Positions 35,935 through 60,543 of a stretch of 64,000 bases of DNA are shown here, piece by piece. This DNA comes from an uncultured Planctomycetota bacterium (GTDB lineage Bacteria; Planctomycetota; Brocadiia; JAADGH01; CAYPFP01): assembly GCA_964409935.1 (NCBI GenBank), contig CAYPFP010000001.1, forward strand, positions 30,331 through 94,330. The letters run 5' to 3'. Position 1 is the stretch's first letter. Every line of letters starts with the position of its first letter. A program made the position numbers and the translations under genes. The notes under the pieces were generated by a model, which saw only the letters and a program-made list of their open reading frames with translations, was not told where the DNA came from and did not search any database.

Positions 35935-36193
35935 GCCTCTCGTTGCGTTTGAGATTGTGTGAGACCCCTTGGTGCGGCCGCCCCCCGCGGGGGCATCCGC
36001 CGGGGCCTCAGCAGGGCCGTCGCTCGCAGCGGGGGATACGGACTCCCGCAAGAAACGGTTTCCTCACACGTCCTGAGGGAGCCTGGGTCGCGAAGCCGTC
36101 TCCTTCCTCCCGGAGATCCGTGCAATATCTCCGCCCCCGAGTTTGCCCCCGCCATGAGGCAAGCGGTCTCTCGGGGCGCGGGGAGGTTTGGTT

Positions 36194-39100
36194 ATGAAAC
36201 GACTCCTGGTCCGAAAGAGGGTATGGCTCCCGCTCCTCTTTATCCTGACGGCGGGCTTGGGCGGTCCCTACCTGGCGCTCCGGCTCTTCGTAAATCCCGA
36301 AGAGATCAAGGCGACGGTGGAGCGCATGCTCAGCGAGCAGTTCGGCGGGCGCGCCCGAGTCGAACGCGTCAAGATCGGCGTCTTTCACGGGGTCGAATTG
36401 CGGGGCGTATCCGTCAGCAAGTCCGACGCCAAGGGCCTGGCGCCTTTCTTGCAGGTCAAGTCGCTCTGGCTCAAGAACTACCTCAAACCGCTGCTGAGGG
36501 GGAGATTCGTCATAGAGGAGGTGGACATTGACCAGCCCACCGTCTTTCTGACGCGCAATGCCGACGGAAGGTGGAACATCCAACAGACAACCGGGGAACC
36601 TTCCGGCGGCGGAGGCATGGCCGCTTCGGGACCGTCCGCCCTGGCCTCCCTATCCGTTCACGACGCCACCATCGAGATACGAGACCAGTACGCCGGCCAG
36701 AACTTCCCCAGTATGCGCATCCTCGGCGTCAATTTCAGCGCGATCAGCCGCGAGCCGGGGAATCTTCCTTTCACGATTACCGGCCGCATCGCCAGTTCCA
36801 TTCTCGGTCAATGCCTGGTCTCCGGTTCCCTCGACCTGGACAACGGCGTCTTCAATCTCAGCCTTTCGCGCAAGGGACTCGTCCTGGACGACGAACTTGC
36901 CAAGAACCTGCGGACGTTCCGGCCCGATCTGTTCAGGGTCCTCGGCGGCTGGCGCGGCTTGATGGACCTGCGGTTCAACCTGACCTATGACCTCATCGGC
37001 TCCGGCGGCGTCAAGTACAGGCTGATGGCCAAACTCCTGGGCGACAGCCTGACGGTCAAGGGGCTTCCGTATTCCTTTCAGAGCATCTACGGGGCCGTGA
37101 CGCTCACGGACGAGAAGCTGGTGGTGCAGAACGTGCGCGGGAGATGGGGTTCGACGCGTTTCGTGGTTGACGGCGCTCTGCCCCTGGCCAACCCCGCCGG
37201 CCGGCCGGGCATAACGGTGTCGCTCCTCAATGTTCCGCTGGACCCCCGCCTGGCCGCCCTGGCCGGGAAGGAGGTCTCGGAAGCCTGGAAAGAGTTCAAG
37301 CCCACCGGCCAGTTCGACGTTCTGTGCAGGCTCGACGGCTGCCTGTACGCGATCCGCGATCTGCGGTACCGCGCTTCCATCTTCCTCAAGGAGTGCGGTT
37401 TCTCGCATCAGCGGCTCGATGTGCCCATCGAGCGCATCAACGGCCAGATTGATGTGACACGCGAGCGCCTCCACGTGCGGCGCATGACGGCTTTGTGGAG
37501 GGGCATTCAGATCGAGATGCCGCCGGCGTCCACGCAACTGTCGGCCGATGCGCCGGTGGACTTCGTCCTTCGCCTCGCCAGCCTCCCGCTCGACGAAAAG
37601 CTCAAGGCCCTCCTGCCGCCCGACCATCGGGCCTCGTGGGACCAGTTCAGCCCGAAAGGCGTCGTCAACGCGGCCATCCACGTCCGGCGCAAGGCAGGCG
37701 CCGCCAGTCCTTTTGAGGCCACGGTGGCGCTGACCTGCGTGAAGGACTGCGAGTTCACCTACAAACAGTTTCCCCGGACCCTCCGGAACGTGCAAGGCGT
37801 GGTCGAGTTCCGGTCCGACGGCGTGGCCTTCCGCGGCGTGAAGGGGAGCGTGGGGGCCGGGAAAGTGGAGTTCGTGGACACCGTGATCCCGTTCGATCCT
37901 TGCGCCAGCTTCAACTTCGAGTTCACGGCCGCCGACATCGAGTTCGACCGGGAGTTGTACGACGCCCTCAGTCCTGAACTGAAGGCCGTCTACGACCGCA
38001 TCAACCCCTCCGGCCGCTTCGACCTGGAATGGCACCAGGAGCGCCGGCGCGGGCCGAACGCCAGGACGATCCACGACGTCGTCGTTCGCCCGCGAGGCGC
38101 CGCCGTTCTCATCAAGGACGTGCCGTATCCTCTGAACAACCTTCAGGGGACGATCCTCTATGACGGTGAAAGGATTTCGTTGGACAAACTGACGGCCCAG
38201 AACGGCCCGGCGCGCGTCGCCGTCGAGGGGCGGGTGCCGCGGTCTTCCTCCAGCGGCACCCTTCACGTTCGGGTCGCCGGCCGGAACATCCCCCTGGACG
38301 ACTCCGTGCAGAACGTCCTTCCCGAGGGCTATCAGGGGCTTTGGGGCAAGATCGAGCCGCAGGGCGCCATCCATTTCTCTCTGGAACTCAACGAGGGCAT
38401 TGACGAACTGGGCAAACCGCTTGTGCGCTACACCGTGCCGGAGCTGCGCCTCCTGAACTGCGCGGTCAGGCCGAAGGTCCCCGTGACCGGCATTCGCGGA
38501 TTGGTCAAGTTCACGGGCGAGATTCGGGAAGACCCCAGGAACTCCTGGGCCTCCGGCGAAGTGGTTCTCGACGAGGCCGTGATCGAGGGGAAGAAGTATG
38601 ACAGCGTGAACGCAACTTTCCACAACGAGCGCGACCTCATGACCTTCCCCTACATTGAGGCCCGTTGTTACGGCGGGAAAGTGGTGGGCGAACTCAAGGT
38701 GAACAAAGGCGCAAGCGTTGACAGCTCGGGCTACGAAGCCTTCTTTCGCGCGGAGAACGTCAGCGCCAGGCAAATCTGCGAGTCCGCCGGCGTCGCTCTC
38801 AAGAGCGTGGACGGCGCGATCTTCGCCGATTTCCGGGCCGAGGCCAGGTCGTGGAAGGCCGAGGACCTGAACGCCGACGGCTCTTTCCGCATATCGCAGG
38901 GGCATCTCGGCGACCTGGTCTCCATGATGGGCGTGACCGAGAAACTGAACACCGGTCCCGCCAAACCCGCGTTCACGGATGTGGATTTTGACTATATCAT
39001 CGCGGAGAACGAGGCGGTCATTGAGAAAGCTCGGCTGATCGGTCCCTCCATTAACCTGAAGGGGGAAGGCAAGATCGGCCTCGACGGCAACCTTTCGCTC

Positions 39101-39328
39101 GAGTTCCATCCGGAGCCGGGGCGGGGCGGCCCCGAGATACCCGTCGTGAGCCAGTTTGTGGGGGGGATGTTCGGCGCGGCCGTCACGATCTCCGTCACCG
39201 GCACGGTGTGGAATCCCGTGATCAAGGTGGACCCCCTCGTCCCCATCGGGAAGATGATGCTGGGTCTGTCGGAGGCCTTCGGGGCTGTCGGGAAGAAACC
39301 GAAGAAGGCCGCCCGGCCGTCCCCTTAG
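36194..39328 (+). CDS. AsmA/TamB-like large envelope protein (about 1045 aa)
   Basis: gggagg RBS 7 nt before ATG 36194; TM LPLLFILTAGLGGPYLAL; AsmA-like N-domain RVERVKIGVFHGVELRGVSVSKSDAKGLAPFLQVKSLWLKNYLKPLLRGRFVIEEVDIDQPTVFLTRNADGRWN. Confidence 0.7.
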   Translation: MKRLLVRKRVWLPLLFILTAGLGGPYLALRLFVNPEEIKATVERMLSEQFGGRARVERVKIGVFHGVELRGVSVSKSDAKGLAPFLQVKSLWLKNYLKPLLRGRFVIEEVDIDQPTVFLTRNADGRWNIQQTTGEPSGGGGMAASGPSALASLSVHDATIEIRDQYAGQNFPSMRILGVNFSAISREPGNLPFTITGRIASSILGQCLVSGSLDLDNGVFNLSLSRKGLVLDDELAKNLRTFRPDLFRVLGGWRGLMDLRFNLTYDLIGSGGVKYRLMAKLLGDSLTVKGLPYSFQSIYGAVTLTDEKLVVQNVRGRWGSTRFVVDGALPLANPAGRPGITVSLLNVPLDPRLAALAGKEVSEAWKEFKPTGQFDVLCRLDGCLYAIRDLRYRASIFLKECGFSHQRLDVPIERINGQIDVTRERLHVRRMTALWRGIQIEMPPASTQLSADAPVDFVLRLASLPLDEKLKALLPPDHRASWDQFSPKGVVNAAIHVRRKAGAASPFEATVALTCVKDCEFTYKQFPRTLRNVQGVVEFRSDGVAFRGVKGSVGAGKVEFVDTVIPFDPCASFNFEFTAADIEFDRELYDALSPELKAVYDRINPSGRFDLEWHQERRRGPNARTIHDVVVRPRGAAVLIKDVPYPLNNLQGTILYDGERISLDKLTAQNGPARVAVEGRVPRSSSSGTLHVRVAGRNIPLDDSVQNVLPEGYQGLWGKIEPQGAIHFSLELNEGIDELGKPLVRYTVPELRLLNCAVRPKVPVTGIRGLVKFTGEIREDPRNSWASGEVVLDEAVIEGKKYDSVNATFHNERDLMTFPYIEARCYGGKVVGELKVNKGASVDSSGYEAFFRAENVSARQICESAGVALKSVDGAIFADFRAEARSWKAEDLNADGSFRISQGHLGDLVSMMGVTEKLNTGPAKPAFTDVDFDYIIAENEAVIEKARLIGPSINLKGEGKIGLDGNLSLEFHPEPGRGGPEIPVVSQFVGGMFGAAVTISVTGTVWNPVIKVDPLVPIGKMMLGLSEAFGAVGKKPKKAARPSP

Positions 39329-42469: not shown

Positions 42470-43552
42470 ATGCTGCTGGCCGAACCGGTTCAACCCGACT
42501 TCGAGGCCTTTCGCAATAACATTCTGCGCAAGGGCGCTCCGCGCCGGGTCCACTTCGCCGAACTGTTTCTCGACGGCGAGGTCCGCAACGCCATCGCCGG
42601 TCGCTACGGCATCGGCGCCGGACTGGACAAGGGCGATCCGTTTTACGCCCTCCGGCTGGAGATCGAGATGCAGACCTTCCTCGGCTACGACACCGTGCGC
42701 GGCGCGGTCGGCTCGAGCGGCTTTCCTCGTCCGACGGCGCCCGCGCCGGATACGACCGAGATCGGCGGCCAGCGCCGCGCCCAGCGGAACTGGACGGACG
42801 AGCACAAAGGCCCGGTCGCTTCATGGGAGGACTATGAGAAGTATCCCTGGCCCGACCCCGCCAAGTTCGACTGCCGCCAGCTCGAGTGGTATGAAAAGAA
42901 TCTGGACCCGCGCTTGGGCGTTGTCGTGGGCTGCCACCAGATATTCGAGCAGGTCACGTGGCTCATGGGGTACGAAACCCTCTGCTACCAGCTTCACGAC
43001 GCCCCCGCCCTCGTGGACGCCATGTTCGAGCGCATCGGGAAATTTTTCGTCGAGGTGGCCGAGACCGCCTGCCAATTCTCCTGCGTCAAGGCCCTCTTCG
43101 GCGGCGACGACATGGGTTACAAGACCGCGCTCATGGTCCCGCCCGATGTGCTCATCCGGAAGTCCTTTCCCTGGCATCGCCGTATCTCCGAGATTGCCCA
43201 TAACCGCGGCAAGCTCAACATTCTTCACTCCTGCGGCAACCTGGACGCCGTCATGGACCCCCTCATTGACTACTGTCAGTTCGACGGGAAACATTCCTTC
43301 GAAGACGTGATCGAGCCGGTCACCGAGGCGAAGGGGAAATGGGGCGGCCGCATCGCGTTGTTGGGCGGCATTGACGTGGACTTTCTGGCCCGCGCAAACG
43401 ATCAGGAGATCCGGCAGCGCGTCCGGCGGACGCTTGACGTGTGCCTGCCCGGCGGCGGCTACTGTCTCGGCTCCGGCAATTCCGTGGCCAACTACATCCC
43501 CGTCGAAAACTACCTGATCATGCTCGACGAGGGCCGCTGCTATTCCGCCTGA
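42470..43552 (+). CDS. uroporphyrinogen-decarboxylase (URO-D) family protein, paralog 1
   Basis: ATG 42470 after an aaaggaga RBS; 360 aa; URO-D/MtaA-like TIM-barrel blocks; C-terminal GGGYCLGSGNSVANYIPVENY shared with paralog 3. Confidence 0.8.
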   Translation: MLLAEPVQPDFEAFRNNILRKGAPRRVHFAELFLDGEVRNAIAGRYGIGAGLDKGDPFYALRLEIEMQTFLGYDTVRGAVGSSGFPRPTAPAPDTTEIGGQRRAQRNWTDEHKGPVASWEDYEKYPWPDPAKFDCRQLEWYEKNLDPRLGVVVGCHQIFEQVTWLMGYETLCYQLHDAPALVDAMFERIGKFFVEVAETACQFSCVKALFGGDDMGYKTALMVPPDVLIRKSFPWHRRISEIAHNRGKLNILHSCGNLDAVMDPLIDYCQFDGKHSFEDVIEPVTEAKGKWGGRIALLGGIDVDFLARANDQEIRQRVRRTLDVCLPGGGYCLGSGNSVANYIPVENYLIMLDEGRCYSA

Positions 43553-43578
43553 CAGCCGGATTTTCAGAGGAGCCGACA

Positions 43579-43812
43579 ATGCCCGACAAACCGACCGTTC
43601 ACGATCTCTTCAAGGACGATGCGCCCGAAAGCGCGGAGATGCCGTTGTGCCCCAAGTGCGGCGGCAAGAGCTACGACCGCAAGCGCGCCCGCATCGGTTA
43701 CGACGTCTTGTTTATTTATTGCACCGGATGCAAGACCGCCGTCGGCGTGGTTCCCGCCATGGGCCCGCAGACGATGATCGAGCATCTTCGCAGGGAGATC
43801 AAGAAGACCTGA
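43579..43812 (+). CDS. small zinc-ribbon protein (77 aa)
   Basis: agagga RBS then ATG 43579; CPKCGG...CTGCKT two CxxC pairs. Confidence 0.5.
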   Translation: MPDKPTVHDLFKDDAPESAEMPLCPKCGGKSYDRKRARIGYDVLFIYCTGCKTAVGVVPAMGPQTMIEHLRREIKKT

Positions 43813-43851
43813 GTGGCGTTGGAAGGCGGCTTCTTCACGGAGAGAAGAGCA

Positions 43852-46242
43852 ATGTTCAGAGCGGTCTGTATTGTCTTTCTGCTGGTTCTGGCTTGTGGTC
43901 CGGCTTTAGGAGCCGATGCCATGTCCTTCCCCAAGATTCGTCCCGCCGGCGGCTGCTATCCCCGCCCCTTCGCCGACCAGGTGCTCGACGTTTCGCCTCC
44001 CGGCTTCTGCTGGTGGCACGCCGGCCGGCGCGGCAAGGTGCGCTATCGCCTCAAGATCGCGGATGCGGCAGGCACTGCGGCCTATGAATCGCCCGTGATC
44101 GAAGACCCCGCGCATGTCCCGACGAAGGTCTTGCCGGCCGGGCGTTACACGTGGACCGTCGAGGCCCTCGACGCCGCAGGAAAGGTCCACGACATACGCC
44201 CGCCCGAAGCGTTCGCCATCGCCGAAAACGCCGTGGCGCAGCCGTGGGTCCCCGCGGAGGAACTGCTGGCCCGGGTTCCGAAGGACCATCCGCGCCTGCT
44301 CTTCCCGAAGGCTTCACTCGCGGAGGTACGCTCAACGCTGACGAGCACCCGCAAAAAGGCGTTTGACGGCCTGGCGGGGTCCGCGAAGTCCCTTCTCAAG
44401 CTCACACCGCCTCCGGAGCCGGACTACGACAAGATCAAGGACCCCTCCGAACGGCGCCTCGCCTACGGCGAGTCGTTTGCGCTCATGCGCAAGTACCACG
44501 ACGGCGGCATGATGCCCCTGGCGCTGATGTACATGCTCACCGGCGAGCGGAAATACGGCGACGCCGCCAAAGCGATCCTTCTCGGCGCGACCCAATGGAA
44601 CCCCGAAGGAATCTCTTCCGTCATGGCCCCCTATGGCGACGAGGTCGGGCTTGGTCTGGCGCGGTCGGCCGCGCAGACCTACGACTGGCTGCACGACCTG
44701 CTCACCGACGACGAGCGCGCCCAGGTAAAGAAAATGCTCATCGCCCGCGCCGACCAGGTGCTGCGCCGCCTCGTGAAGCACGACTTTCTTGCCCGGCCGG
44801 AGAACAGCCATGAGGGTCGCCTTCCCGGCTACCTCATCGAGCACGCCATCGCTCTCGCCGAAGAGCCGCGCGCGCGGGTCTGGATGGATTACGCCATGAG
44901 GACGGTCCTCACCGTTTTCCCGCACTGGGCCGGCCAGGACGGAGGGTGGGCCGAAGGCGTGCCGTACGGACTGGCGTACAACAACATCTACCTGACGCCC
45001 TTCGAGTCGCTGCGCGCCGCCGCCGGCTTTGACATGTGGCAGCGCCCCTTCTACCGCAAAGTCCGCTACTTCTTCCTCTACAACATCTCGCCGCGCGGAG
45101 AACTCATGCCCTTCGGCGACACCGAAGAGGCCGAGGTTGCTCCGAGGGCATCCGGCATCTGCTCCCTGCTGAAGTTCCATGCCCTCCGTTACAACGACCC
45201 CGTCGTTCGCTGGTGGATTGACCTTTTCACCAGACCCGGCGAAAAGCCGAAGGCCATTACCGGCCTGCCGGCCCTCATCCTGCCCGACACGGTTCAGCCC
45301 AAGCGGCCCGCAAGCCTGGCTCAAGACGCCGTCTTTTACGACGTGGGCTGGGTCGCCCTGCACAGCGACATCGCCGATCCGGACAAGGACCTGATGGTCA
45401 TGTTCAAATCCTCCCCGTACGGAGCGGTCAGCCACAGCCACGCCGATCAGAACAGTTTCGTCGTCATGAAGGGAGGCAAGGCCCTGGCCATCCCCGCCGG
45501 CGCGCGCTGGCCGACGCATGGATCGCCATTCCATGTAAAGTATGTGCAGCAAACCCTCGCCCATAATGCCATACTCGTCAACGGCAAGGGCCAGATCAAC
45601 CGCGACGGAAACGCCGACGGGCGGATCGTCGGCTTTGAGACCAAACCGCATCTGGGCTACGCCTGCGGCGATGCCGTCGGCGCGTATGGCGGCCTGCTGA
45701 AGCGCTGTCGGCGGCACGTGCTCCTGGTTCGGCCTTCGCTTGTGGTGGTTGTGGACGACCTCGAAGCCCCGGAACCGGCGGAGTTCCAATGGCTTTTCCA
45801 CGCCAAAGACAAGCTCGAACTCGACGAGTCCGCTCAGACGTTCGTCTCGCGTCGCGGCGGGGCTTCCATGAAGGTGAGGCTTATTACGTCCGGCGGCTTC
45901 GCCTTTGCGCAGGACGACGCCTGGCCCGTCAACCCGAAAGAGGGTTTTCCCGGCGCAAAGAAAAAGGAGCCTGAGAAGCAGTGGCACTTCACCGCCGCCG
46001 CGCGGGAGCGCGCCGTCCGGCGCCGCATCGCGGCGGTGATGTTTGTGGCGGGGGCCGAAGGCGCCTTCAACGGCAGGGTGATCGCCCCATCGCCGGACAA
46101 GGTGGAGGTCGCGGCCACGATGCCGGACGGCGAGGCCGTTGTGCGCATCAGCCTCACCGTCGAGCAGGCGGACGCATCGCCCATCATGGAGGCGCAGTAC
46201 AAACCGACGGAGGGCGAGGTCCAATGGCTTTCTGTGAAATGA
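43852..46242 (+). CDS. secreted heparinase II/III-like (alginate-lyase-like) polysaccharide lyase family protein
   Basis: Signal peptide MFRAVCIVFLLVLACGPALGADA; (alpha/alpha)-toroid N-domain; HSHADQNSFVVMKGG motif typical of the heparinase II/III C-domain. Confidence 0.75.
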   Translation: MFRAVCIVFLLVLACGPALGADAMSFPKIRPAGGCYPRPFADQVLDVSPPGFCWWHAGRRGKVRYRLKIADAAGTAAYESPVIEDPAHVPTKVLPAGRYTWTVEALDAAGKVHDIRPPEAFAIAENAVAQPWVPAEELLARVPKDHPRLLFPKASLAEVRSTLTSTRKKAFDGLAGSAKSLLKLTPPPEPDYDKIKDPSERRLAYGESFALMRKYHDGGMMPLALMYMLTGERKYGDAAKAILLGATQWNPEGISSVMAPYGDEVGLGLARSAAQTYDWLHDLLTDDERAQVKKMLIARADQVLRRLVKHDFLARPENSHEGRLPGYLIEHAIALAEEPRARVWMDYAMRTVLTVFPHWAGQDGGWAEGVPYGLAYNNIYLTPFESLRAAAGFDMWQRPFYRKVRYFFLYNISPRGELMPFGDTEEAEVAPRASGICSLLKFHALRYNDPVVRWWIDLFTRPGEKPKAITGLPALILPDTVQPKRPASLAQDAVFYDVGWVALHSDIADPDKDLMVMFKSSPYGAVSHSHADQNSFVVMKGGKALAIPAGARWPTHGSPFHVKYVQQTLAHNAILVNGKGQINRDGNADGRIVGFETKPHLGYACGDAVGAYGGLLKRCRRHVLLVRPSLVVVVDDLEAPEPAEFQWLFHAKDKLELDESAQTFVSRRGGASMKVRLITSGGFAFAQDDAWPVNPKEGFPGAKKKEPEKQWHFTAAARERAVRRRIAAVMFVAGAEGAFNGRVIAPSPDKVEVAATMPDGEAVVRISLTVEQADASPIMEAQYKPTEGEVQWLSVK

Positions 46243-46661
46243 AGTTCGACATTGTGAAATGGTCGGCCCGCGTCCTGGCCCTGCTATGGGCGGGTTGGTG
46301 GATGTTCTTCGGCCTGGCGTGCGGCGCTTCGCACAAGTGGGGCCTGTTCGCCTGTCTGCTTCACGGCGCCGTGCCCGGCGGGATTTACCTGGTCAGCGCG
46401 CTGGTTCCGTGGAGGTGGCCCCTTGCCGGCGGAGTGTTGCTTGTCGTTGAAGGGTCGGCCATTCTGATCGGGTATCCCGTGCTGGTCCATGGACGTTTCA
46501 GGCTCTCGACAATCCTCTTTGTGGCGGCTACAATGGCCGCGCCGCCGCTGATTTCGGGCGCGTTGTTCATCTTCCATGGCAGGAGGTCGAGGTCCCATGA
46601 CCAGTCGAGAGCGGGTGCTGGCCGCGTTGAACCACCAGGAGCCGGACCGGGTCCCCATTGA
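46239..46661 (+). CDS. small 4-TM membrane protein
   Basis: ATG overlaps the upstream stop (ATGA); four hydrophobic segments; 3' end overlaps the next gene by about 65 nt, so the true end is uncertain. Confidence 0.4.
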   Translation: MKFDIVKWSARVLALLWAGWWMFFGLACGASHKWGLFACLLHGAVPGGIYLVSALVPWRWPLAGGVLLVVEGSAILIGYPVLVHGRFRLSTILFVAATMAAPPLISGALFIFHGRRSRSHDQSRAGAGRVEPPGAGPGPH

Positions 46662-47847
46662 CCTGGGCGGGAGCTTCGTGACCAGCATTGCCGCGCAGTC
46701 CCTGGACAGGCTGCGCCGCCGCCTGGGCCTTGAGCACCGGCCGGTCAAGGTCTACGACGTGATGCAGATGCTCGGCGAGGTGGAGCTTGACCTTGCGGAG
46801 CGGTTCCAGGTGGACGTCCTTCCCGTCGAGCCGCCCGCGCTCACGCTCGGCGTGCCGCGCGGCGACTGGAAGCCGTGGCGTCTGTTCGACGGCACGGAGG
46901 TGCTGATGCCGGGCCGCTTCAACGTGGCCGTCGGGCCCGAAGGCGACTGGCTGCTGCGCCACCCCGCCAACCCCGACGCCCCGCCCATCGCCCGGATGCC
47001 CAAGGACGGATTCTACTTCGACGCCATCAACTACGGCGGCTGGAACCCCGACTTCAAGCCGCCCCGTCTGGAGCAGGTGCGCGCCGGCATGAAGAGCTGG
47101 CTGCTCAAGGACGAGACGCTTCGCCACATGCAGGCCCTGGCGCGCACGTTGCGCGGCAGTTCCGACAGGGCGCTGCTCCTCGGGTCCTGGGGCGCGACGG
47201 GCATGCACTACGTGGGAACGCTCACGGAATTCTGGTGTCTCTTGGGCACGGACCCCGCCTATGTGCGGGACCTTTTCATGCTCTCGGCCGAGGCCGCCAT
47301 CCAGAACCTCGGCATGATGTGGCAGGCCATCGGCAAGGACGTGGACATCATCGCCGTCACGGGCCTCGACTACGGCACGCAGCGGCGCGAGTGGTTCTCG
47401 CCGGAGACGTTCCGCGAGGTCTACGTCCCTGCGCTGCGGGCGCAGTTCAACTGGATTCACGAACACACTCCGTGGAAGACCTTCGAGCACTCCTGCGGCA
47501 GCATCCCGAACCTTATCGGCGACCTGGCCGACGCCGGCCTCGACGCCCTGAACCCCGTGCAGACGTCCGCCGAAGGCATGGACCCGCGCTGGCTGAAGAA
47601 GACATTCGGCGAGCGGATTACGTTCTGGGGCGGCGTCGTCGAGACGCAGTCCACGCTCGCCTTCGGCACGCCCGACGAGGTGCGCGCCGAGGTCGCCGAG
47701 CGCATCGGCATCTTTGCGCCGGGCGGAGGCTTCGTCTTCTGTCCCATCCACAACATACAGGCGGACACGCCCGCCGACAACATCGCCGCGGCGTATGAAA
47801 CGGCCCTGGCGGTCGGCCGGTATCCCATCTCCCGGAAGGGCGCATGA
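46597..47847 (+). CDS. URO-D family protein, paralog 2
   Basis: aggaggt RBS 10 nt before ATG 46597; MTSRERVLAALNHQEPDRVPIDLGGSFV...; 416 aa. Confidence 0.8.
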   Translation: MTSRERVLAALNHQEPDRVPIDLGGSFVTSIAAQSLDRLRRRLGLEHRPVKVYDVMQMLGEVELDLAERFQVDVLPVEPPALTLGVPRGDWKPWRLFDGTEVLMPGRFNVAVGPEGDWLLRHPANPDAPPIARMPKDGFYFDAINYGGWNPDFKPPRLEQVRAGMKSWLLKDETLRHMQALARTLRGSSDRALLLGSWGATGMHYVGTLTEFWCLLGTDPAYVRDLFMLSAEAAIQNLGMMWQAIGKDVDIIAVTGLDYGTQRREWFSPETFREVYVPALRAQFNWIHEHTPWKTFEHSCGSIPNLIGDLADAGLDALNPVQTSAEGMDPRWLKKTFGERITFWGGVVETQSTLAFGTPDEVRAEVAERIGIFAPGGGFVFCPIHNIQADTPADNIAAAYETALAVGRYPISRKGA

Positions 47848-47950
47848 AGATTGCGGCGAACGCCCAGAGCCTGAGTCTCGAACCGTCCCCGGCGGCGGCA
47901 GACATTGCGTTTAAGATTCGATGTTAGAACAGGAAAAGGAGCGTGAACCC

Positions 47951-48994
47951 ATGTCAGAGAAGGTACGTTTCGGGCTGATCGGCAGCGGCGCGCAAGGGCG
48001 TTACCTTTCCGAAGGCGCGATGGCGACGGGAAAGGCCGAGTTGGTGGCCTGCGCGGACCCGAAGCCGCAGGCAGTGCAACTGGCCATGAGCTTCTGCGGC
48101 TACAAGCGGTCCTACGCCGACGCCGCCGAGATGCTCGACAAGGAGCATCTCGACGCCGTCATCGTCGCCACGATTCACGACCAGTTGCAGCCGATGGCCA
48201 TGGCGGCGGTGAAGGCGGGCAAGCACGTCTTTGTCGAAAAGCCCATGGCCCTTACGGCGAAGGACGGCCGCGAGCTGGTCGCCGCCGCGCAGAAGGCGGG
48301 CGTCAGGCTCATGGTCGGCTATACCCTGCGCTTCATGCCCGAACGCATCCTCATGAAAAAACTCCTCGACTCCGGCGCCATCGGCGACGTGGTGCACGTG
48401 ACCGGCGGCCAGATGATCGGCGGCATGGGCGGCTGGCTCGGCGATCCGGCGCACGGCGGCGGCCCGATGTTCTACATCGGCAGCCACGCCACGGACTTCA
48501 TCCTGTGGATGGCGGGCAAGAAGGTCGAGCGCGTCTACGCCGAAGAGCAGCGTCCGGACAGGAACGGCGTCGAGAAAAGCCTCTTCATCACGATCCGCTT
48601 TGCCGGCGGCGTCCTGGGGCAGTCCTCGACCTCGCAGCAGATCGGCGGGCGTTACGGATGGGCCGACGTTCTGGGCACGGCGGGGCGCATGCGCGCGGAA
48701 TGGGAGAGCAACATCCTGCAAGTTCAGAGCGCGAAGGTGGAGGCCTACCGCGAACTGACGTCCATCCGCGTCCCGGCCGCCGCGCACATGCCGGCGTTTG
48801 CGCCCGACGCCCGCATGAGCTTCGCCGGCAGCGCATACGTCCGCTATTGGGCCGCCGAGTTCGTCGAGTTCATCGGCGCCATCAGGGAGAACCGCCCGCC
48901 GTCGGTGCCCGGCGAGGACGGCGTGCGCGTGCTGGAGGTCATTGACGCGGCCTTCGAATCCGCACGCACCGGAAAACCCGTCGAGGTGAAATGA
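47951..48994 (+). CDS. Gfo/Idh/MocA family oxidoreductase
   Basis: MSEKVRFGLIGSGAQG Rossmann motif, EKPMALTAKDGREL block; aaaggag RBS. Confidence 0.9.
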   Translation: MSEKVRFGLIGSGAQGRYLSEGAMATGKAELVACADPKPQAVQLAMSFCGYKRSYADAAEMLDKEHLDAVIVATIHDQLQPMAMAAVKAGKHVFVEKPMALTAKDGRELVAAAQKAGVRLMVGYTLRFMPERILMKKLLDSGAIGDVVHVTGGQMIGGMGGWLGDPAHGGGPMFYIGSHATDFILWMAGKKVERVYAEEQRPDRNGVEKSLFITIRFAGGVLGQSSTSQQIGGRYGWADVLGTAGRMRAEWESNILQVQSAKVEAYRELTSIRVPAAAHMPAFAPDARMSFAGSAYVRYWAAEFVEFIGAIRENRPPSVPGEDGVRVLEVIDAAFESARTGKPVEVK

Positions 48995-49171
48995 AGCTCC
49001 GAACGCCTTGGGCAGGAAGCGAGGGCGGCCTCGGGTCAACGCGTGGGCCGAAGGCATCCGCAAGACGGCCGGAAACATGGAGAAGGCGCTCTATGCCTAT
49101 CGCGACCTGGCCATCGAGCTGAACGAACTATACGCGAACGTCAAGGGCGCACGGAACTGGAAGAAGTCGAA

Positions 49172-49807
49172 ATGACAATGCGAAACAACCTGAACATCGC
49201 GTTCTTTCTTTTCGCGGCGCAATGCGCCATCCTGCCGGCGCCCGACGCCGGGGCGCAACCGGCGCAGGAGGACTCGTATGTTCAGGTCCGCGCCGGCCAC
49301 CTTGTGCGCAACGGCCGGAGGCTTCGCCTATGGGGCATCAACACCCAGGGACCAACCTTCCGCGACGGCGTCAAGGTGCAGGGCGTGGGGAAGCTCTGGA
49401 CCGATCCGGATGATATCGCGCCGCCCAAGGAGGGCAAGGCCGGGCAGTATCGCCCGTATTACGCCTTCACGCTGGTGAGCGACGACGGCCTGGCGCTGGC
49501 GCAGTCAAAGCGGCTTCTGGTCTCGCTGGTGAGCACGTCGCAGAACACCGGCTACGCGTTCGACCCGGCGAAGGTCCCGCAGGCGGGCCCCGACGCCCAA
49601 ACGATGGCGAAGGGCATTCTGTCGCGGGGGACGATGCCTGTGCAGGTGAACCGCGTCGGCGCGTCGGTGGCGGCGCCGTTCCTCATCGGGAAGAAGTACA
49701 GCAAGCTGGATTTCGGCATGGAGGCGTTTGAGCAGGGCGAGGTGAAGGACAAGTTCGTGATCGCGCACACGGACCCGCTGTTTATCGCGACCTTCCATGC
49801 GGAGTGA
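49172..49807 (+). CDS. secreted hypothetical protein (211 aa)
   Basis: MTMRNNLNIAFFLFAAQCAILPAPDAGAQPA signal peptide. Confidence 0.5.
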   Translation: MTMRNNLNIAFFLFAAQCAILPAPDAGAQPAQEDSYVQVRAGHLVRNGRRLRLWGINTQGPTFRDGVKVQGVGKLWTDPDDIAPPKEGKAGQYRPYYAFTLVSDDGLALAQSKRLLVSLVSTSQNTGYAFDPAKVPQAGPDAQTMAKGILSRGTMPVQVNRVGASVAAPFLIGKKYSKLDFGMEAFEQGEVKDKFVIAHTDPLFIATFHAE

Positions 49808-49842
49808 CGACGGGCTTTCCCGTCCTTCGCCAGGCGACGCCG

Positions 49843-51630
49843 CTAGGTCTCCTTCGTCGTGCCGAACTGCATCGCGTAGAGGTGGCTGTACTCTCCTCGC
49901 TTCGCCAGAAGCTCGTCGTGCGTGCCCATCTCGATGATGCGGCCGTTGCGCAGGACGATGATGCGGTGGGCGAACTTGATGGTGGAGAGGCGATGGGCGA
50001 TGACGAAGGTGGTGCGCCCCTGCATGAGTTTCTGAAGGGCGTCCTGGATGAGTCTTTCGGAGTCGGAGTCGAGCGAGGACGTGGCCTCATCGAGGATGAG
50101 GATTTGGGCGTTCTTCAAAAAAGCGCGGGCGATCGTGACCCTCTGGCGCTGACCGCCGGAGAGCTTTGACCCCATCTCGCCCACTTCGGTCTCATATCCC
50201 CTGGGCAGCGAGGCGATGAAGTCGTGGATGTTCGCCGCTCTGGCCGCCTCGGCGATCTCCTCCGAGGCGGCGCCGGGCTTGCCGTAGCGGATGTTGTCGG
50301 CGAGGGAGCGGTTGAAGAGGAACGGCTGCTGCGAGACGATGGCGATGTGGTCGAGGAGGGAGTGCTGGCGTATCTTGCGCAGGTCGAGGCCGTCAATGGT
50401 GATGGCGCCTTCCTGGGGGTCGCGGAAGCGGGCGATGAGGTCGCACAGGGTGGACTTGCCGGCGCCGCTGTGACCGACGATGGCGACGATCTCGCCGGGC
50501 TTCACGAGCAGGTTGATGCCGCACAGAACGGGGACGGTGTTGTAGGCGAAGGTCACGTTGTCGAAGCGAATGCCCTCGCGCATGAGGGGCATCTCGACGG
50601 CGTCGAGGGCGTCCTGGATGGTGGGGGGCGTGTCTATCAGTTCGAAGATGCGCAGCGCGCCGGGCAACGACTCCATGAGGTTGTTGTAGGCCTTGCTCAG
50701 GCGCTTGACAGGGGCGAACATGCAGGCGGCGGCGGCGATGAAGGTGACGAACTCGCCCGCCGTGAAGTTCAGGCCCAGCGTGCCGGGGTACAGGAGAACG
50801 TACCCGCCGCCGAGGATGATGAGGAAAAGGCCGGCGTTGCCGATGAAGTCCACCGCGCCGTCGGCGATGGCCTTGGCCTTGACGGTCTTCATGACCCTGC
50901 CGAAGTAGCGCTGGTTGGTCTGGCGGAAGTCTTCGGTCTCCGCCGTCTCCATCGCGAAGGCCTTGACGATGCGGATGCCGCTGAACATCTGGTGCATGGC
51001 CTCGGTGATGTCGGACAGGCGTTCGAGGGCGCTGCGCGCATACTTCTTGACGCGCTTGCCCAGCACGCCCATCACGATGCCGACGAAGGGGAAGATGATG
51101 ACGGACGCGATGGAGAGCTGCCAACTCGCCCACAAGGCCACGGTCAGGAAGGCGATGAGGCCGAAGACGGCCTGGAGGATTTCCGAATAGAGGAACTGAA
51201 GGGCGCGGTAAAGGATGGCGATGTCGTTGGTGAGACGCGACATCAGGTCGCCGGCGCGACGGTCTTCGAAGAAGGCCAGGGGCTGCGGCAGCAGCTTGGC
51301 GCACAGCTCGTTGCGGATGTCCATGAGCGCGGACCACAGGACGCGGCCGCCGCCGTATGTCTGGAAGGTGTTGCTCAGGAAGATCACGGGGGCCAGAAGG
51401 ATGAGGTAGATGGCGATGTTGAGCAGGTTGTGGATCGCCTCCGGGCGCGAGGCGGCCTCGAAACCTTTCAGGAGGCTGTTGTCCACCAGGGGTTTGGTGA
51501 GCCACAGCTTGATGCCGTTGGTGGCCGAGTAGGCGACCATGGTTACCAGCGTGAGCAGCACCCACAGCCGGTGCGGCCAGGCATAGCGGTATACGCGAGC
51601 GTAGGTTCGAAGGAATTCGGACTTTATCAT
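49843..51630 (-). CDS. ABC transporter permease/ATP-binding protein (MsbA-like exporter)
   Basis: Six-TM domain then Walker A GHSGAGKST, ABC signature LSGGQRQRVTIARAF, Walker B ILILDEATS. Confidence 0.9.
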   Translation of the reverse strand: MIKSEFLRTYARVYRYAWPHRLWVLLTLVTMVAYSATNGIKLWLTKPLVDNSLLKGFEAASRPEAIHNLLNIAIYLILLAPVIFLSNTFQTYGGGRVLWSALMDIRNELCAKLLPQPLAFFEDRRAGDLMSRLTNDIAILYRALQFLYSEILQAVFGLIAFLTVALWASWQLSIASVIIFPFVGIVMGVLGKRVKKYARSALERLSDITEAMHQMFSGIRIVKAFAMETAETEDFRQTNQRYFGRVMKTVKAKAIADGAVDFIGNAGLFLIILGGGYVLLYPGTLGLNFTAGEFVTFIAAAACMFAPVKRLSKAYNNLMESLPGALRIFELIDTPPTIQDALDAVEMPLMREGIRFDNVTFAYNTVPVLCGINLLVKPGEIVAIVGHSGAGKSTLCDLIARFRDPQEGAITIDGLDLRKIRQHSLLDHIAIVSQQPFLFNRSLADNIRYGKPGAASEEIAEAARAANIHDFIASLPRGYETEVGEMGSKLSGGQRQRVTIARAFLKNAQILILDEATSSLDSDSERLIQDALQKLMQGRTTFVIAHRLSTIKFAHRIIVLRNGRIIEMGTHDELLAKRGEYSHLYAMQFGTTKET

Positions 51631-51683
51631 ATCGCGTGACGCACACTATGGCCGATAGGCCGGAACGCCTCTTCGGGATCGCC

Positions 51684-52727
51684 TTACATTGTCTCGAAAG
51701 CGGTTTCGATCATGGCCCGGTAGTTCTCGACGGGCACGTAATAGGTGACGGAGTTGGACGAGCCGAGGCAGTACCCGCCGTCGTAGGCCAGGTCGCGGAT
51801 GTTGGCGCGGGCGAGGGTCCGCACTTCGTCGGGGGCGCCCCGCGAGAGGCGGTCCAACTCGATGTTTCCGGCCAGGCACAGCCGGCCTTCGACGCGCTTT
51901 TTCAACGCGCGGATATCCATGGCTTTAGGTTCGACCGGATGCAGGCCGTTGAAGCCGGCGTTGATGATATCCTCAATGACCGCCGTCAGGTCTCCGTCGG
52001 AGTGGTAGAGGAACGGTATGTCGCGCTGCTGGCAGAGCAGCGACATCTTCCTGTACCACGGGAACATGTATTTGCGCAGGATGGCCGGCGAGACCATCAG
52101 GCCCGTCCCGTAGGCGATGTCGTCGGACATCCACGCCGCGGCCACGCCGGGCAGTTCCAGGGCCTGTTCGAGCGCCCGGAATTGGATGTTGCCGACCTTG
52201 TTGAACAGCCGTTCGACGAGGGCGGGGTTCTCCACGGTGGCCAGGGCGAAGGTTTCGAAGCCCATGAGCATCCACACCGACGTGAAGACCTTGCCGAGGA
52301 TGGCGATGGTGCGCATGTCGGGCGGGAGGAGTTTGGAGACTTCCCGCGCCACGGCGAGGCCGGGGCTTTCCTCGGCGGGCCACTGGAAGCGCTCAAGCTC
52401 CTCTTCGGTCGTGATGACGCCCTTGCCTTCGGCGGCCCACTTCATCTCGACCTCTTCTTCGGAGTAGATGCTGTAGCGGGATCGCTTTCGCAGCGTGGCG
52501 TCGCCGGACAGGACGCCGCCCACCTCCAGGATGCCGAGCGAGATGGGCACGTAGTCGTAGCCGGCCAGAATCCAGAACTCCACCTCGTCCTGCAACGAAG
52601 CGGCGCGTTTGCCGAGGAAGGCGGACTTGACTTGGTTGTCTACGAATAACTCGATAAGGGGGACGCGATCCGGCTTGCCTTCGAGCAGCAGGGCGGCGCG
52701 AAGCCTGGTGAAATCGTTGCGTTTCAT
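51684..52727 (-). CDS. URO-D family protein, paralog 3
   Basis: 347 aa; N-terminal RLRAALLLEGKPDRVPLIELFVDNQV and C-terminal GGYCLGSSNSVTYYVPVENY parallel paralog 1. Confidence 0.8.
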   Translation of the reverse strand: MKRNDFTRLRAALLLEGKPDRVPLIELFVDNQVKSAFLGKRAASLQDEVEFWILAGYDYVPISLGILEVGGVLSGDATLRKRSRYSIYSEEEVEMKWAAEGKGVITTEEELERFQWPAEESPGLAVAREVSKLLPPDMRTIAILGKVFTSVWMLMGFETFALATVENPALVERLFNKVGNIQFRALEQALELPGVAAAWMSDDIAYGTGLMVSPAILRKYMFPWYRKMSLLCQQRDIPFLYHSDGDLTAVIEDIINAGFNGLHPVEPKAMDIRALKKRVEGRLCLAGNIELDRLSRGAPDEVRTLARANIRDLAYDGGYCLGSSNSVTYYVPVENYRAMIETAFETM

Positions 52728-53259: not shown

Positions 53260-53288
53260 AGTATAGTATGCCCTGAAGTCGGTGTCAA
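53260..53288 (-). promoter_or_regulatory. near-consensus sigma70 promoter TTGACA-17-TATACT for the lipoprotein gene
   Basis: Minus-strand TTGACA (53288-53283), 17-nt spacer, TATACT (53265-53260); AT-rich surroundings; 67 nt upstream of ATG 53192. Confidence 0.5.
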
Positions 53289-53373: not shown

Positions 53374-56300
53374 TCAGTATTCGGTCACAAAGCGCGAGGT
53401 TTGGGCCTTTACGCCGTCGGTGACGCCGTCGGCCCCCGGTGTCGGGAGGCCGGTGGCAAGCGGCTGGGCGTTGAGATTGTTGACGATATCGGTTCGCTCG
53501 ACCAGGGCGCGGATGCGGGCCTCAGCCAGTTGGCCGCTGGGGTTGAAGACGCGCCCGCGGGCTACGACGGTGAAGAAGCGCGACTTGATGTCGAGCACGT
53601 TCCAGTACCGCGAGAACCATTCCATGCGCTCGGCGATGTCGTCGGCCAGGTCGTCGTTCAGGTAACCCGCGCCGGTGTCGTCGAAGTCCAGAGGGTTGAA
53701 CCACGATCCGGAGCCGAGGTTGATGGGGTAGTTGTAGGCGCTGTTGTCGGCGCGGCCGCCGTTGCGGATGGCGGTGGTGCCCGTTCGCACGCTCCAATCC
53801 CTCTGATAGACTCTATCCCGAAGGGTCTGGGTGTCCGAATCCGGGCTGACGTTGAACTGTCTTGGGGTCTTCAGGAGGGTGTAGAAGGCGTTGCGGGTGA
53901 AGAAGGGGTCGCCGCGCAGGACCTCGAAGTTGACGCCCAGGCCGAAGCCCTGGGGGGCGATGGGGGCCACGCCCCGGTCGCTGCGCAGGGGGAGTATGAC
54001 GTTGTTCAGCTCCGCGCTGACCGCGTTGGTGTACCGGCAGGAGGTCGGAAGGATCCTTCGGCGGAGTTCGGGGGTTTCGAGATTGATGGTGGCGTTGTCG
54101 CCGGGGGCCGGGGGCGTGCCGCTGCCGGAGAGGCCGATATATCCTGAGAATCCGCAGACGTCGAGGATGTCGCGGTAGGGGCGGTGACGGATGATGTCGG
54201 CGGCCATGGAGGTGGGGAAGACGGCGGCCAGTACGGGCATGGAGGCGGTGTTGATGTTGATCTTCGCCCGCGCGCGGCCGTGGGGCCAGACGGTGGCGAT
54301 CTCGCGCCAGTCGGGCGTTCGTTCGACCCAGGCGTAATTGGTGGTGCTGGCGGTCTGCGGTCTGGGGAAGACGGTGGGCCGCAGGTAGAGAGGCGCGGCG
54401 AAGTTGGTGCGGGCGGTCCACAGGGCGTTGCGCTGGTTCGGGATGGTGGTGTTCAGGACCCACGTCGTGAAGGGCGAGGGTCGGAAGGAGTAGTCCGTGT
54501 TCAGGGTTCCGGCGGCGTAGGTGGCGGTGAGTCCGCCGCTCAGGCCGATGAGGCGGGTGAGGATGTTGTCGTCGTAGTAGCAGGGGCCTCTGTTCTGGCC
54601 GTTGGCCGGGTTTTCCACGAAGAGGCGGGCCACGTCGTTCTCGCCGACGCGCTCTTCGGGCAGGATGGGGGCCATGTTCTTCCAAGGCCCCATCGGGGAA
54701 TGGACGAAGGCCAGCCAGCCGACGCTGGGGAAGGCGTTGTCGAGCACGACGGGGACAGTGCGATTGTCAATGGCCATGCGCAGTTCGACATGGTCCATCC
54801 AGTGGTGGTCGTTCTGGTTGCCGGGCCTTCGGGTGCCCGCGGGCAGGTCGCGGAACCAGGCAGGGGCGGAGGCCATGTCGTCCACGTGTCCGGGATAGAG
54901 GTACTTGCGGCCGAAGACGTTGCCGGCGTCATAGAAATACATGTAATTCTTGTTCCAGTTGCGCAGGCGGCGGCGGCCGGTCTCGACGTCGGGGGGGTCG
55001 TTGGTGGTGGAGGCGGGGTCGGGCCGCCAGAGGTTCCGCTGGCTGCTGCGCCACCAGAGGTTTTGGGACATGTCGTAACTGGCTGCCTGTCGCTGGAACA
55101 GGTTCGCCTTGGTGCTGTTGAAGTCGGGGTCAATCTGAAGCCATGCGGCGTTCATGCCGGCGCGGGCCTGGGGATCGGAGGCGTTGACGGGCATGAAGCG
55201 CTTCATGGAGGCGTTGGCGTGGCCGGCGTTGGGCACGACGGGGGCCGTTTTCTCGATGGCGCAGTAATCATACCGGTCCGTGGCGGCGCTGGCCTTGTCG
55301 CCGGTGGTGATGGCGGCGACCTGGCGGCTGGTGAAGTTCATGCTGGAGGCGCCGGCCCAGAGGTCAATCTCGCCGCCGGCGACCTGGAATTGCAGGGGCT
55401 GTGCGCGGCCGGGGATGGTGGGTCCCCAGATTTCGGAGCGGCCCCACACGGTGACGGGATTGCTCGTGGTTCCCTGATCGCGGTTCCAGAGTCCGAAGAG
55501 TTGGTCAATCTCCCTTATGGGGGAGGGGGGCGTCGTCGTGAAGTTGGACGGGAATTCCATGAACTGGACGGGGTAGTCCTCTTCGCCGACCCGGCCCCAG
55601 CCCACGTTGGAGATCACGTAGCCGGGCGTGGCGGCGTAGTAGTCCGAGACGGCGCCCGCGCCGAAGGTACCGCAATAGGCCGCTTCGCTGAGGGCCACGA
55701 CGTAATAGCCGAAGTTGGTGGGGAACATCCCGTCGGCGGTGGCCGGGGGGATGAAGGTGGTGGCTCTCTGTGCTCCCGCTTTGACGTCATAGAAGAGGGC
55801 GGTTTCGTTTTGGGTGGTCTTGGGGTCGTTGCCCAGCCAGAATCCGGGCCGAAGGGGACGACCGCTTCGGTCGTCGTAGAGGAAGTAATTGTTGACGTCC
55901 ACGAGACTCGGAGTAGGGGTGCGCATGACGAGCTTGAAGGCGAGCAAGCCGCCTGGCGACAGGGCCAGCGGGATGGGTTTCTTGCCGATATTGACCAGTT
56001 CCGCGTAGGGGCAGACGAAACGGAGGCTGTAGAACTTGGCGAACTTGTTGGCGACGCCGCCGGCGGGGTCCCACCGGCTGATGCCGCGGACCCTGATGAC
56101 GAAGCCGACGTTGGGGTCGGCGTCCACCCGGATGGCCATGGACTTGCGGCCGCCTCTGGGGAGGGGCTTGCCGATGCTGGGGATCGTGTTGTCGGGGTAG
56201 GTCACGAAGCCATAGATGTTGTCCACACCGGCGGACTCGTCGGTCAGGTTCACCGTGCCGGTGTTGGCGTCCTTCACCGGGACGTGGAAGCGGCGGAAGT

Positions 56301-59976: not shown

Positions 59977-60009
59977 CAGACTTGTTCCTTCCAGGGGCGG
60001 TAACAAACA

Positions 60010-60540: not shown

Positions 60541-60543
60541 CCG

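Follow-up and report, generated by a model that had tools for sequence, protein, structure and literature searches.

The stretch of DNA analysed here, referred to as the window, is 64,000 nucleotides (64 kb) long and comes from an uncultured Planctomycetota bacterium (GenBank contig CAYPFP010000001.1). Between positions 42470 and 52727 it carries three genes, here called UROD-1, UROD-2 and UROD-3, whose products belong to the uroporphyrinogen decarboxylase (URO-D or UroD) superfamily. Because the window is about 64% G+C, genes were picked by codon-position GC (GC3) together with frame analysis, and then translated and searched against Pfam. On the plus strand, UROD-1 (42470-43552; 360 amino acids, aa) is followed by a small zinc-ribbon protein (43579-43812; 77 aa, CPKC...CTGC), to which no family could be assigned and whose sole Pfam match is a sub-threshold one to Lar_restr_allev. 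Next come a lyase with DUF4962 and Hepar_II_III_C domains and a signal-like N-terminus (43852-46242; Pfam), a DUF7670 membrane protein with four transmembrane helices (4-TM) (46239-46661; PF24709, E 7.6e-11), UROD-2 (46597-47847; 416 aa) and a Gfo/Idh/MocA NAD(P)-dependent sugar oxidoreductase (47921-48994; Pfam), which has sub-threshold NCBIfam matches to inositol 2-dehydrogenase and glycoside 3-dehydrogenase models. The last of these co-directional genes encodes a secreted protein of unknown family (49172-49807), with a signal-like N-terminus and no Pfam or NCBIfam match. UROD-3 (51684-52727; 347 aa) lies on the minus strand, where an MsbA-type ABC exporter (49843-51630; ABC_membrane plus ABC_tran) begins 53 nucleotides (nt) downstream of it. 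The UROD-3/exporter pair is also present on an independent Logan contig (L001).

Along the plus strand, successive genes are separated by 26 and 39 nt, then overlap by 4 nt and by 65 nt, and are separated again by 73 and 177 nt. The 4-nt overlap is an ATGA at 46239-46242, read directly from the sequence, in which the start of the DUF7670 gene overlaps the stop of the lyase gene. In the 65-nt overlap (46597-46661), the beginning of UROD-2 is read in a different frame from the 3' end of the DUF7670 gene, and a ribosome-binding site (RBS), AGGAGGT, is found at 46581, about 10 nt ahead of the UROD-2 ATG and still within the DUF7670 gene. The last 20 or so residues of the DUF7670 product, which extend beyond the Pfam match, may be incidental read-through. 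Promoter-like sites, both of them pattern matches only, occur at 46506-46534 on the plus strand (sigma-70-like, 10/12 consensus positions), inside the DUF7670 gene and upstream of UROD-2, and at 53260-53288 on the minus strand (TTGACA-17-TATACT, 11/12 consensus positions), upstream of the UROD-3/exporter pair. The plus-strand cluster, including the lyase, DUF7670, zinc-ribbon and Gfo/Idh/MocA genes, is probably co-transcribed in this organism. UROD-1, UROD-2 and UROD-3 are probably cytoplasmic, as a signal peptide is not evident in them. An earlier note on this stretch had listed the three URO-D genes together with a zinc ribbon, a secreted lyase, a 4-TM protein, a Gfo/Idh/MocA oxidoreductase and an ABC exporter, and the GC3, frame and Pfam analyses bear out this gene content. 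The RBS that it placed inside the gene preceding UROD-2 is indeed there. The ATGA overlap that it read as translational coupling of the URO-D genes is real too, but joins the lyase to the DUF7670 gene and not to a URO-D gene.

The three URO-D proteins are only distantly related to each other. UROD-1 and UROD-3 are 31% identical over their full length, while the similarity of UROD-2 to the other two is confined to its C-terminal 100-140 residues (27-30% identity). UROD-1 and UROD-3 share the block GGYCLGS.NSV..Y.PVENY, which is written here with ..Y rather than.YY because UROD-1 has NY where UROD-3 has YY. Apart from this one position, the common N- and C-terminal blocks that the earlier note had seen in two of the proteins are those of UROD-1 and UROD-3. 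The same note had made the neighbour of the exporter the third, non-sharing protein; this was mistaken, as UROD-3 adjoins the exporter and itself shares the blocks.

Homolog searches with UROD-1 (family 1) collected 4466 proteins, and 52-64% identity was still found in Poribacteria and Chloroflexi. The search with UROD-2 (family 2) yielded 7694 proteins from Armatimonadota, Planctomycetota, Anaerolineae, Spirochaetes, Bathyarchaeia, Verrucomicrobia and Atribacteria, and that with UROD-3 (family 3) yielded 1223 proteins from Planctomycetota, Chloroflexota, KSB3 and Zipacnadales. Each of the three families keeps more than 50% identity across phyla. Judged by these comparisons, UROD-1, UROD-2 and UROD-3 are members of three separate, old and widespread families and not recent paralogs. 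The public names of the members are generic, such as 'uroporphyrinogen decarboxylase family' or 'methyltransferase'. Several family 3 members (P0009, P0019 and P0080) are named 'nucleoside 2-deoxyribosyltransferase' at NCBI, though PF01208 is their only domain, and this label is probably a propagated misannotation. Domain fusions were also sought in the families; the longer members carry only unrelated N-terminal extensions resembling miscalled starts.

All three proteins match the URO-D profile PF01208 above its gathering score (E 7e-14 for UROD-1, 5.8e-15 for UROD-2 and 3.5e-19 for UROD-3), yet the matches span only the C-terminal two thirds of it, about positions 98-343 of 346 (98-342 only for UROD-1). 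The HemE equivalog model is matched by none of them in NCBIfam (E<=0.01). The NCBIfam matches are to MtaA/CmuA-type models only, at 29-52 bits (29-39 for UROD-1) against cutoffs of 235-400, so that the MtaA/CmuA subfamily cutoffs (TIGR01463 and NF004889; 235-244 bits) are not reached either. The PxWxMRQAGR arginine motif of HemE is missing: by regular-expression search, neither RQAGR nor R.AGR occurs in any of the three proteins, the N-termini of which read RVHFAELFLD, RVPIDLGG and RVPLIELFVD. Among 120 members of each family, an RQAGR-like motif occurs in none of family 3, five of family 2 and two of family 1. Finally, a Pfam scan found no haem-pathway gene among the approximately 35 genes of the window, as the earlier note had stated. 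From these sequence features, none of the three genes is HemE. The same note had already concluded this, and the missing arginine motif, the unmatched equivalog model, the weak matches limited to MtaA/CmuA and the lack of a haem context all agree with it.

What the families have in common is a different motif. H-x-C-G or H-x-D-G was found in 119-120 of 120 members per family. In family 1, H253, C255, E278 and C332 (UROD-1 numbering, family alignment) are invariant. Family 2 has invariant H298, N319, P320, Q322, H385, N386 and Q388, with C300 in at least 90% of members. Family 3 shows H-x-D where families 1 and 2 show H-x-C: H242 and D244 are invariant and E266 is kept in at least 90%, and C320 is present in at least 80% of 117 members but in less than 90% of a 30-sequence alignment. 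The motif also varies by lineage within family 2, being H-x-C in some lineages and H-x-D in others, which is the pattern expected of an interchangeable metal ligand. In HMMER alignments the H-x-C/D and the following Glu correspond to the 'LHICG' and 'VEEK' segments of MtaA, which, from what is known of MtaA and MetE, bear the zinc ligands. As a single sequence, UROD-2 matches MtaA (4ay7) with E 1.2e-5, EHSCG being aligned with LHICG, and an HHalign comparison of families 1 and 2 (98% probability) puts their HSCG motifs in register.

Profile searches against the Protein Data Bank (PDB) gave, for family 3, MtaA at E 1.3e-9, CdmB at 6.4e-6 and HemE at 0.01; for family 1, MtaA at 0.013, HemE at 0.59 and no match to CdmB; and for family 2, MtaA at 0.038, CdmB at 0.57 and HemE at 1.3e-3, the last over the C-terminus only. 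His385 of UROD-2 is aligned with the conserved C-terminal His of HemE. The AlphaFold2 (AF2) model of UROD-1 (mean predicted local distance difference test, pLDDT, 92.6) has MtaA (4ay8) as its top PDB match (E 1.8e-12, template modelling score, TM, 0.70), and the model of UROD-2 (pLDDT 92.2) likewise has MtaA on top (E 1.6e-13). In the Foldseek ranking of both models, MtaA is followed closely by HemE and then by MetE; UROD-1 reaches a TM of about 0.65-0.69 with HemE structures. Identities in the structural alignments of UROD-1 and UROD-2 are 12-17% to HemE structures and 14-18% to the MtaA structure. UROD-2 has an extra beta-rich insert at about residues 50-135. The URO-D TIM-barrel fold is confirmed, and the active-site pattern points to the metal-dependent methyl-transfer branch of the superfamily, with metal binding as a prediction. 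The metal motif and MtaA as the best structural match together argue for methyl or alkyl transfer and not for decarboxylation. The catalytic residues, for which the earlier note had suggested a comparison with HemE and MtaA, fall out accordingly in part: RQAGR of HemE is absent and H-x-C (UROD-1 and UROD-2) or H-x-D (UROD-3) is present, with the position of the MtaA C-terminal Cys being replaced.

The lyase of the cluster is similar to the oligo-alginate lyase Atu3025 (3a0o) over residues 46-729 (E 5.6e-68) and more distantly to a PL15-type heparinase-like protein (6lja; E 2e-31). The residues aligned to His311 and Tyr365 of Atu3025, which we take to be the catalytic ones, are His and Tyr and hence conserved. 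Full-length similarity to Atu3025 with this His and Tyr kept was our test for PL15, and the lyase shows both. It differs from Atu3025 by an additional N-terminal peptide, MFRAVCIVFLLVLACGPALGA, which resembles a signal peptide. From these features, the enzyme is probably exported and active, as a PL15-like uronate lyase of the exo type.

Conservation of the neighbourhood was assessed in 119 loci with URO-D homologs, made up of the contigs encoding the homologs, genome contigs and metagenome contigs, by tblastn and blastp of all ten cluster proteins. Homologs of the lyase, DUF7670, zinc-ribbon, secreted-unknown and PEPCK proteins were found in 0/119 loci, including those of relatives at 76% and 85% identity. 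A conserved operon is thereby rejected. Gfo/Idh/MocA oxidoreductase genes do lie near the homologs in 10/119 loci. When 343 neighbouring proteins from 81 unique contexts were clustered, no partner family occurred in more than 7 of the 81; the commonest were Gfo/Idh/MocA and further URO-D paralogs (URO-D neighbours in 7/81). The 85%-identical relative of UROD-2 adjoins a GH95 enzyme. Relatives of UROD-3 adjoin PFK and HPPK, or RtcA. The closest relative of UROD-1 on a long contig (76% identity; locus L035) has DUF5696 and Obg on its two sides, and in its vicinity are a further URO-D gene, a gene for a B12-binding radical-SAM protein and genes of cobalamin assembly. In this locus, genes for CbiB, CobT/DBI_PRT, an aminotransferase and a CbiA fragment (cobalamin nucleotide-loop) and the B12-binding radical-SAM gene flank the UROD-1 relative (648-4159 and 13061-14428). 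The cobalamin link in L035 may be coincidental. Relatives of UROD-2 in Armatimonadota (L002-L006; 62-67% identity) are directly followed by genes for E1_dh/transketolase-type thiamine pyrophosphate (TPP) enzymes; of the two species represented, one (L005) has Gfo/Idh/MocA genes nearby and the other (L002) a further URO-D paralog immediately upstream. The lyase-URO-D cluster is lineage-specific and not a conserved dedicated pathway. As the PL15 operon is local to this lineage, it cannot be used to assign a substrate.

A different association was found for family 2. When 150 mid-sized proteins drawn from all loci were classified with Pfam, three corrinoid proteins and two DUF1638 proteins came to light, and their genes were located by motif, Pfam and tblastn. 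A Thermogutta locus (L016:2894-7410) encodes a corrinoid protein, Pterin_bind and S-methyl_trans, and then the family 2 gene. Another planctomycete locus (L025:2094-6732) has S-methyl_trans, the family 2 gene, an MtaA-like URO-D gene, a Met_synt_B12 activation domain and a corrinoid protein; two more (L021:495-4738 and L014:1788-6087) have S-methyl_trans, the family 2 gene and DUF1638. The S-methyl_trans/family 2 pair is contiguous in all four planctomycete loci and is the only conserved, functionally informative association found; through it, family 2 is linked to corrinoid-dependent methyl transfer. In a bathyarchaeote (L020), another URO-D gene lies at a distance of 2 kb from that of family 2, with a corrinoid-protein gene just 5 nt upstream of it, and this corrinoid-coupled URO-D protein matches all three window proteins (E 5e-10 to 2e-7). 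We also note that in Planctomycetota (Thermoguttaceae and one other metagenome-assembled genome) the four modules of MetH occur as separate genes, namely a corrinoid protein with B12-binding_2 and B12-binding, Pterin_bind, S-methyl_trans and Met_synt_B12, clustered with family 2, the MtaA-like URO-D gene and DUF1638. The arrangement resembles a methionine synthase split into its parts, or else a system for methyl scavenging. No description of a split MetH-module/URO-D system was found in the literature searched.

Other homologs are found in sugar-catabolic surroundings. Among 150 proteins from genes directly adjoining family 1, Pfam recognised sulfatases (5), URO-D (5), Gfo/Idh/MocA (4), DUF2961/GH172 (3), aldo-keto reductases (3), GH4 (3) and GH42 (2). 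Sugar genes are abundant in these phyla anyway, and the counts are uncorrected for this background. In a metagenomic lineage of low GC content (37-38%; L087:3-13976, L071:2-12793 and L074), an Opp-type ABC importer is interleaved with URO-D paralogs in one operon, which also includes DUF2961/GH172 and an aldo-keto reductase. In L087 and L071 the operon holds six to seven divergent URO-D paralogs, every one of them with H-x-C-G. An L-fucose isomerase (in L074) and a 4Fe-4S protein are encoded nearby in this lineage. Elsewhere (L113:2030-9029) a family 1 gene is the last in an operon for an RpiR regulator, a BadF/BadG-type sugar kinase, NanE, a MurQ-like SIS etherase and DUF4350, with a corrinoid protein encoded 7 kb off on the other strand. 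The importer operons and the L113 operon speak for a catabolic, sugar-linked role.

Two proposals of the earlier note fare differently in the light of these neighbourhoods. Its functional tie of the URO-D genes to the lyase, 4-TM and zinc-ribbon genes is not upheld in any of the 119 loci, although Gfo/Idh/MocA does recur (10/119). Its link to glycans survives as a carbohydrate theme near the homologs (GH95, GH172, GH4, GH42, sulfatases, MurQ/NanE and L-fucose isomerase) but not as a tie to the lyase. The statement that no corrinoid protein is present is true for the window and does not hold in general, since homologs of UROD-2 in Planctomycetota and Bathyarchaeota adjoin corrinoid or MetH modules. 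An adjacent corrinoid protein was the finding that, by that note, would have spoken against its proposal, and these homologs come close to providing it, though the window does not.

Our tentative preference, for which we would claim a little less than an even chance, is that the three genes encode orphan corrinoid methyltransferase-like enzymes of the methyltransferase 1 or methyltransferase 2 (MT1/MT2) type, with their partners encoded elsewhere in the genome. They would represent three uncharacterised subfamilies on the MtaA-like, or methyltransferase, side of the UroD superfamily, all predicted to be cytoplasmic TIM barrels. The putative metal motif lies at the barrel mouth, at the C-terminal ends of the strands, and consists of His253-x-Cys255, Glu278 and Cys332 in UROD-1, His298-x-Cys300 and His385 in UROD-2, and His242-x-Asp244, Glu266 and Cys320 in UROD-3. 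Most likely, a Lewis acid, probably Zn, would activate a heteroatom for methyl or alkyl transfer, and the proteins would act as substrate-specific methyltransferases exchanging a methyl group with a corrinoid, as MT1 or MT2 does. The corrinoid protein, the activase and the second methyltransferase would then be encoded elsewhere in the genome. The substrates are probably small molecules imported during sugar or glycan catabolism, possibly methylated sugars or uronates.

A number of observations weigh against this. The window contains no B12-binding or corrinoid protein (Pfam and tblastn), no RACE/RamA activase and no pterin methyltransferase; the corrinoid and MetH modules of the loci described above have no counterpart in it by tblastn; and an Rfam scan of the 64 kb returned zero matches, which means that there is no cobalamin (B12) riboswitch in the window. 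Many of the host lineages, such as Armatimonadota and Poribacteria, are aerobic, and Co(I) chemistry is less expected there. Among the homologs, corrinoid genes were found only near a family 2 subclade at 42-44% identity, the Planctomycetota members of which have H-x-D and not H-x-C, and none were found near the closer relatives (57-85% identity). In 62 unique contexts of family 1 there is a single corrinoid protein, the one 7 kb away in L113, and a single adjacent S-methyl_trans (L119). Within the URO-D-rich operon of L087 and L071 (14-16 kb), neither tblastn nor a motif scan detected a homolog of corrinoid proteins, and 14 genes scanned with Pfam were without a B12-binding domain (two permease/ATPase-like and two short open reading frames were left unscanned). 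Where MtaA has its C-terminal Cys, the third Zn ligand, family 2 has His and families 1 and 3 have Asn; a conserved Cys of the latter two lies on the last strand, five residues upstream of that position. Because of the Asn in families 1 and 3, metal binding is put forward here only as a prediction. In addition, the genes for MT1, MT2, corrinoid protein and activase of a corrinoid methyltransferase system usually lie together in one cluster (PMC10989822), and CdmB functions without Zn (PMC13222342).

These difficulties give some room to a metal-dependent and corrinoid-independent new reaction on sugar-derived substrates, in which the barrel would be used as in the B12-free MetE; ether or O-methyl cleavage, isomerisation, and thiol alkylation from a non-corrinoid donor are candidate reactions. 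It would account for the absence of corrinoid components from the window and for the near absence of B12-binding domains beside family 1, as B12-binding is missing from the 25 commonest Pfam families of the 150 neighbours and at most one of these can carry it. The recurrent sugar contexts (the ABC importer/GH172 arrays, L113, L074, GH95, sulfatases, GH4, GH42 and the PL15 lyase) and the significant fold matches to MetE structures are also consistent with it. Still, no precedent was found in the searchable literature, the only conserved informative neighbours found are corrinoid and MetH-type modules, and sugar genes are common in these phyla anyway; we regard this alternative as rather unlikely.

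A cofactor-free decarboxylase in the style of HemE, acting on the uronic acids released by the adjacent lyase, is very improbable. The earlier note had suggested a decarboxylase-type function, and the setting is attractive in this respect: the genes adjoin the PL15 lyase and Gfo/Idh/MocA, the window includes two CE15-like esterases, HemE structures are a close second in the fold ranking, and His385 of UROD-2 aligns to the C-terminal His of HemE. The proposal runs against the metal motif, which all three proteins keep in MtaA/MetE-like form and HemE does not have, against MtaA as the top structural match of the UROD-1 and UROD-2 models, against the absence of the HemE substrate-binding Arg pair and the unmatched N-terminal third of PF01208, and against an association with the lyase in 0/119 loci. 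Moreover, HemE chemistry depends on the pyrrole as an electron sink, and uronates are without one. As for a bona fide or alternative uroporphyrinogen decarboxylase, the PF01208 score above gathering would fit, and yet the chance is negligible given the lack of an equivalog match and of the catalytic Arg motif, the 12-17% identity to HemE structures, the three divergent copies and the 64 kb free of haem genes.

A bolder possibility, which we regard as improbable, is that the three subfamilies and the arrays of six to seven paralogs in the ABC importer/GH172 operons constitute a widespread, undescribed class of URO-D-fold metalloenzymes that, in the course of glycan catabolism, removes or transfers methyl or other ether-linked groups of sugars or uronates without a dedicated corrinoid protein. 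If such a class is real, it would give Planctomycetota, Armatimonadota, Poribacteria and related groups a new accessory activity in the utilisation of polysaccharides. For thousands of proteins of environmental heterotrophs, 'uroporphyrinogen decarboxylase family' or 'methyltransferase' is the only annotation. Taken together, the distinct conserved subfamilies of the three genes, their MtaA-like metal motif, the frequent sugar-catabolic operons and, in some lineages, the adjacent corrinoid and split methionine-synthase modules suggest a testable hypothesis: the enzymes may scavenge methyl groups, or demethylate methylated sugars or other catabolites that carry methyl groups. Its confirmation would mean that corrinoid-type methyl transfer reaches well past methanogens and acetogens, and would improve genome annotation. 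Nothing here contradicts established knowledge.

The rest of the window holds housekeeping genes (DnaK, PurN, RsmE and PEPCK) and a number of glycan-related ones: BNR/Laminin_G, two CE15-like esterases, GH2, PcRGLX-like, DUF5696 and two further Gfo/Idh/MocA genes. The two CE15-like (glucuronoyl esterase) genes are adjacent (9577-12856), and the PcRGLX-like protein (24250-27828) and the DUF5696 protein (13712-17377) have 1192 and 1221 aa, respectively, all on the minus strand. DUF5696, present in the window, is in L035 encoded directly upstream of the 76%-identical UROD-1 relative. On the plus strand at 27972-39328, three of four consecutive genes encode large AsmA/YhdP/DUF748-like proteins (1479, 483 and 1046 aa), with a 645-aa tetratricopeptide repeat (TPR) protein between the second and the third, which suggests an expanded set of envelope lipid-transport bridges. 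At 53374-63909 on the minus strand is a gene for a 2210-aa protein with Asp-rich repeats of the DxDxDG type and a C-terminal GspK (T2SSK)-like segment. It is followed by three genes, two of which have weak sub-threshold matches to the prepilin N-methylation motif. It is possible that the 2210-aa protein serves a type II secretion or type IV pilus-like system as a minor pseudopilin of unusual size.

Comparison with characterised proteins helps to place the three genes. With the MT2 proteins MtaA, MtbA and MtsA (4ay7 and 4ay8) they share the URO-D TIM barrel; MtaA is the top Foldseek match of UROD-1 and UROD-2, the His-x-Cys and the following Glu align, and MtaA/CmuA-type families are the sole NCBIfam families matched. 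They differ from MtaA in their low identity (14-18%) and scores (29-52 bits versus 235-400), in the third ligand (His in UROD-2; in UROD-1 and UROD-3, Asn together with a Cys further upstream), in the Asp that replaces the motif Cys in UROD-3, in having no corrinoid protein nearby and in their hosts, which are not methanogens. HemE has in common with them the Pfam family, the fold and, in UROD-2, the aligned C-terminal His; RQAGR, the haem context and an equivalog match are all missing from them, whereas the metal motif is present.

The MT1 O-demethylases (OdmB, VdmB, MtvB and MtoB) and the chloromethane methyltransferase CdmB (9rui) provide a further comparison. The family 3 profile matches CdmB (E 6.4e-6), and UROD-2 (416 aa), like CdmB (429 aa), is extended in the N-terminal part of the barrel; its insert brings to mind the extensions that CdmB has between its first strands (PMC13222342). 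MT1 sets typically comprise several divergent paralogs at one locus, and some O-demethylases contain Zn (PMC13222342), while CdmB has neither the H-x-C motif nor Zn. The corrinoid-protein, MT2 and activase neighbours of MT1 systems are absent here and partly present (corrinoid protein, Pterin_bind and Met_synt_B12) near distant family 2 homologs. A type 1 mlp cluster consists of at least two Mlps, a corrinoid protein and Ram/RACE, co-directional and with gaps of less than 2 kb (Kountz and Balskus, PMC10418091). Our locus resembles it in having several divergent UroD-superfamily methyltransferase-like genes. It differs in that the corrinoid protein and the activase are absent from the window, UROD-3 is on the opposite strand, and the window proteins stay below 25% identity to the structure of MtaA, the one reference used for this comparison (14-18% in the structural alignments of UROD-1 and UROD-2). 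The clustering of URO-D paralogs elsewhere (7/81 contexts; L087 and L071) is also reminiscent of known multi-methyltransferase clusters (PMC10418091). On URO-D-like proteins in glycan loci, the searchable literature returned nothing relevant. As the clustered arrangement of MT1, MT2, corrinoid protein and activase that defines characterised systems is absent here, and as the family cutoffs are not reached, the genes are assigned to no characterised family and are regarded as novel variants inside the UroD superfamily.

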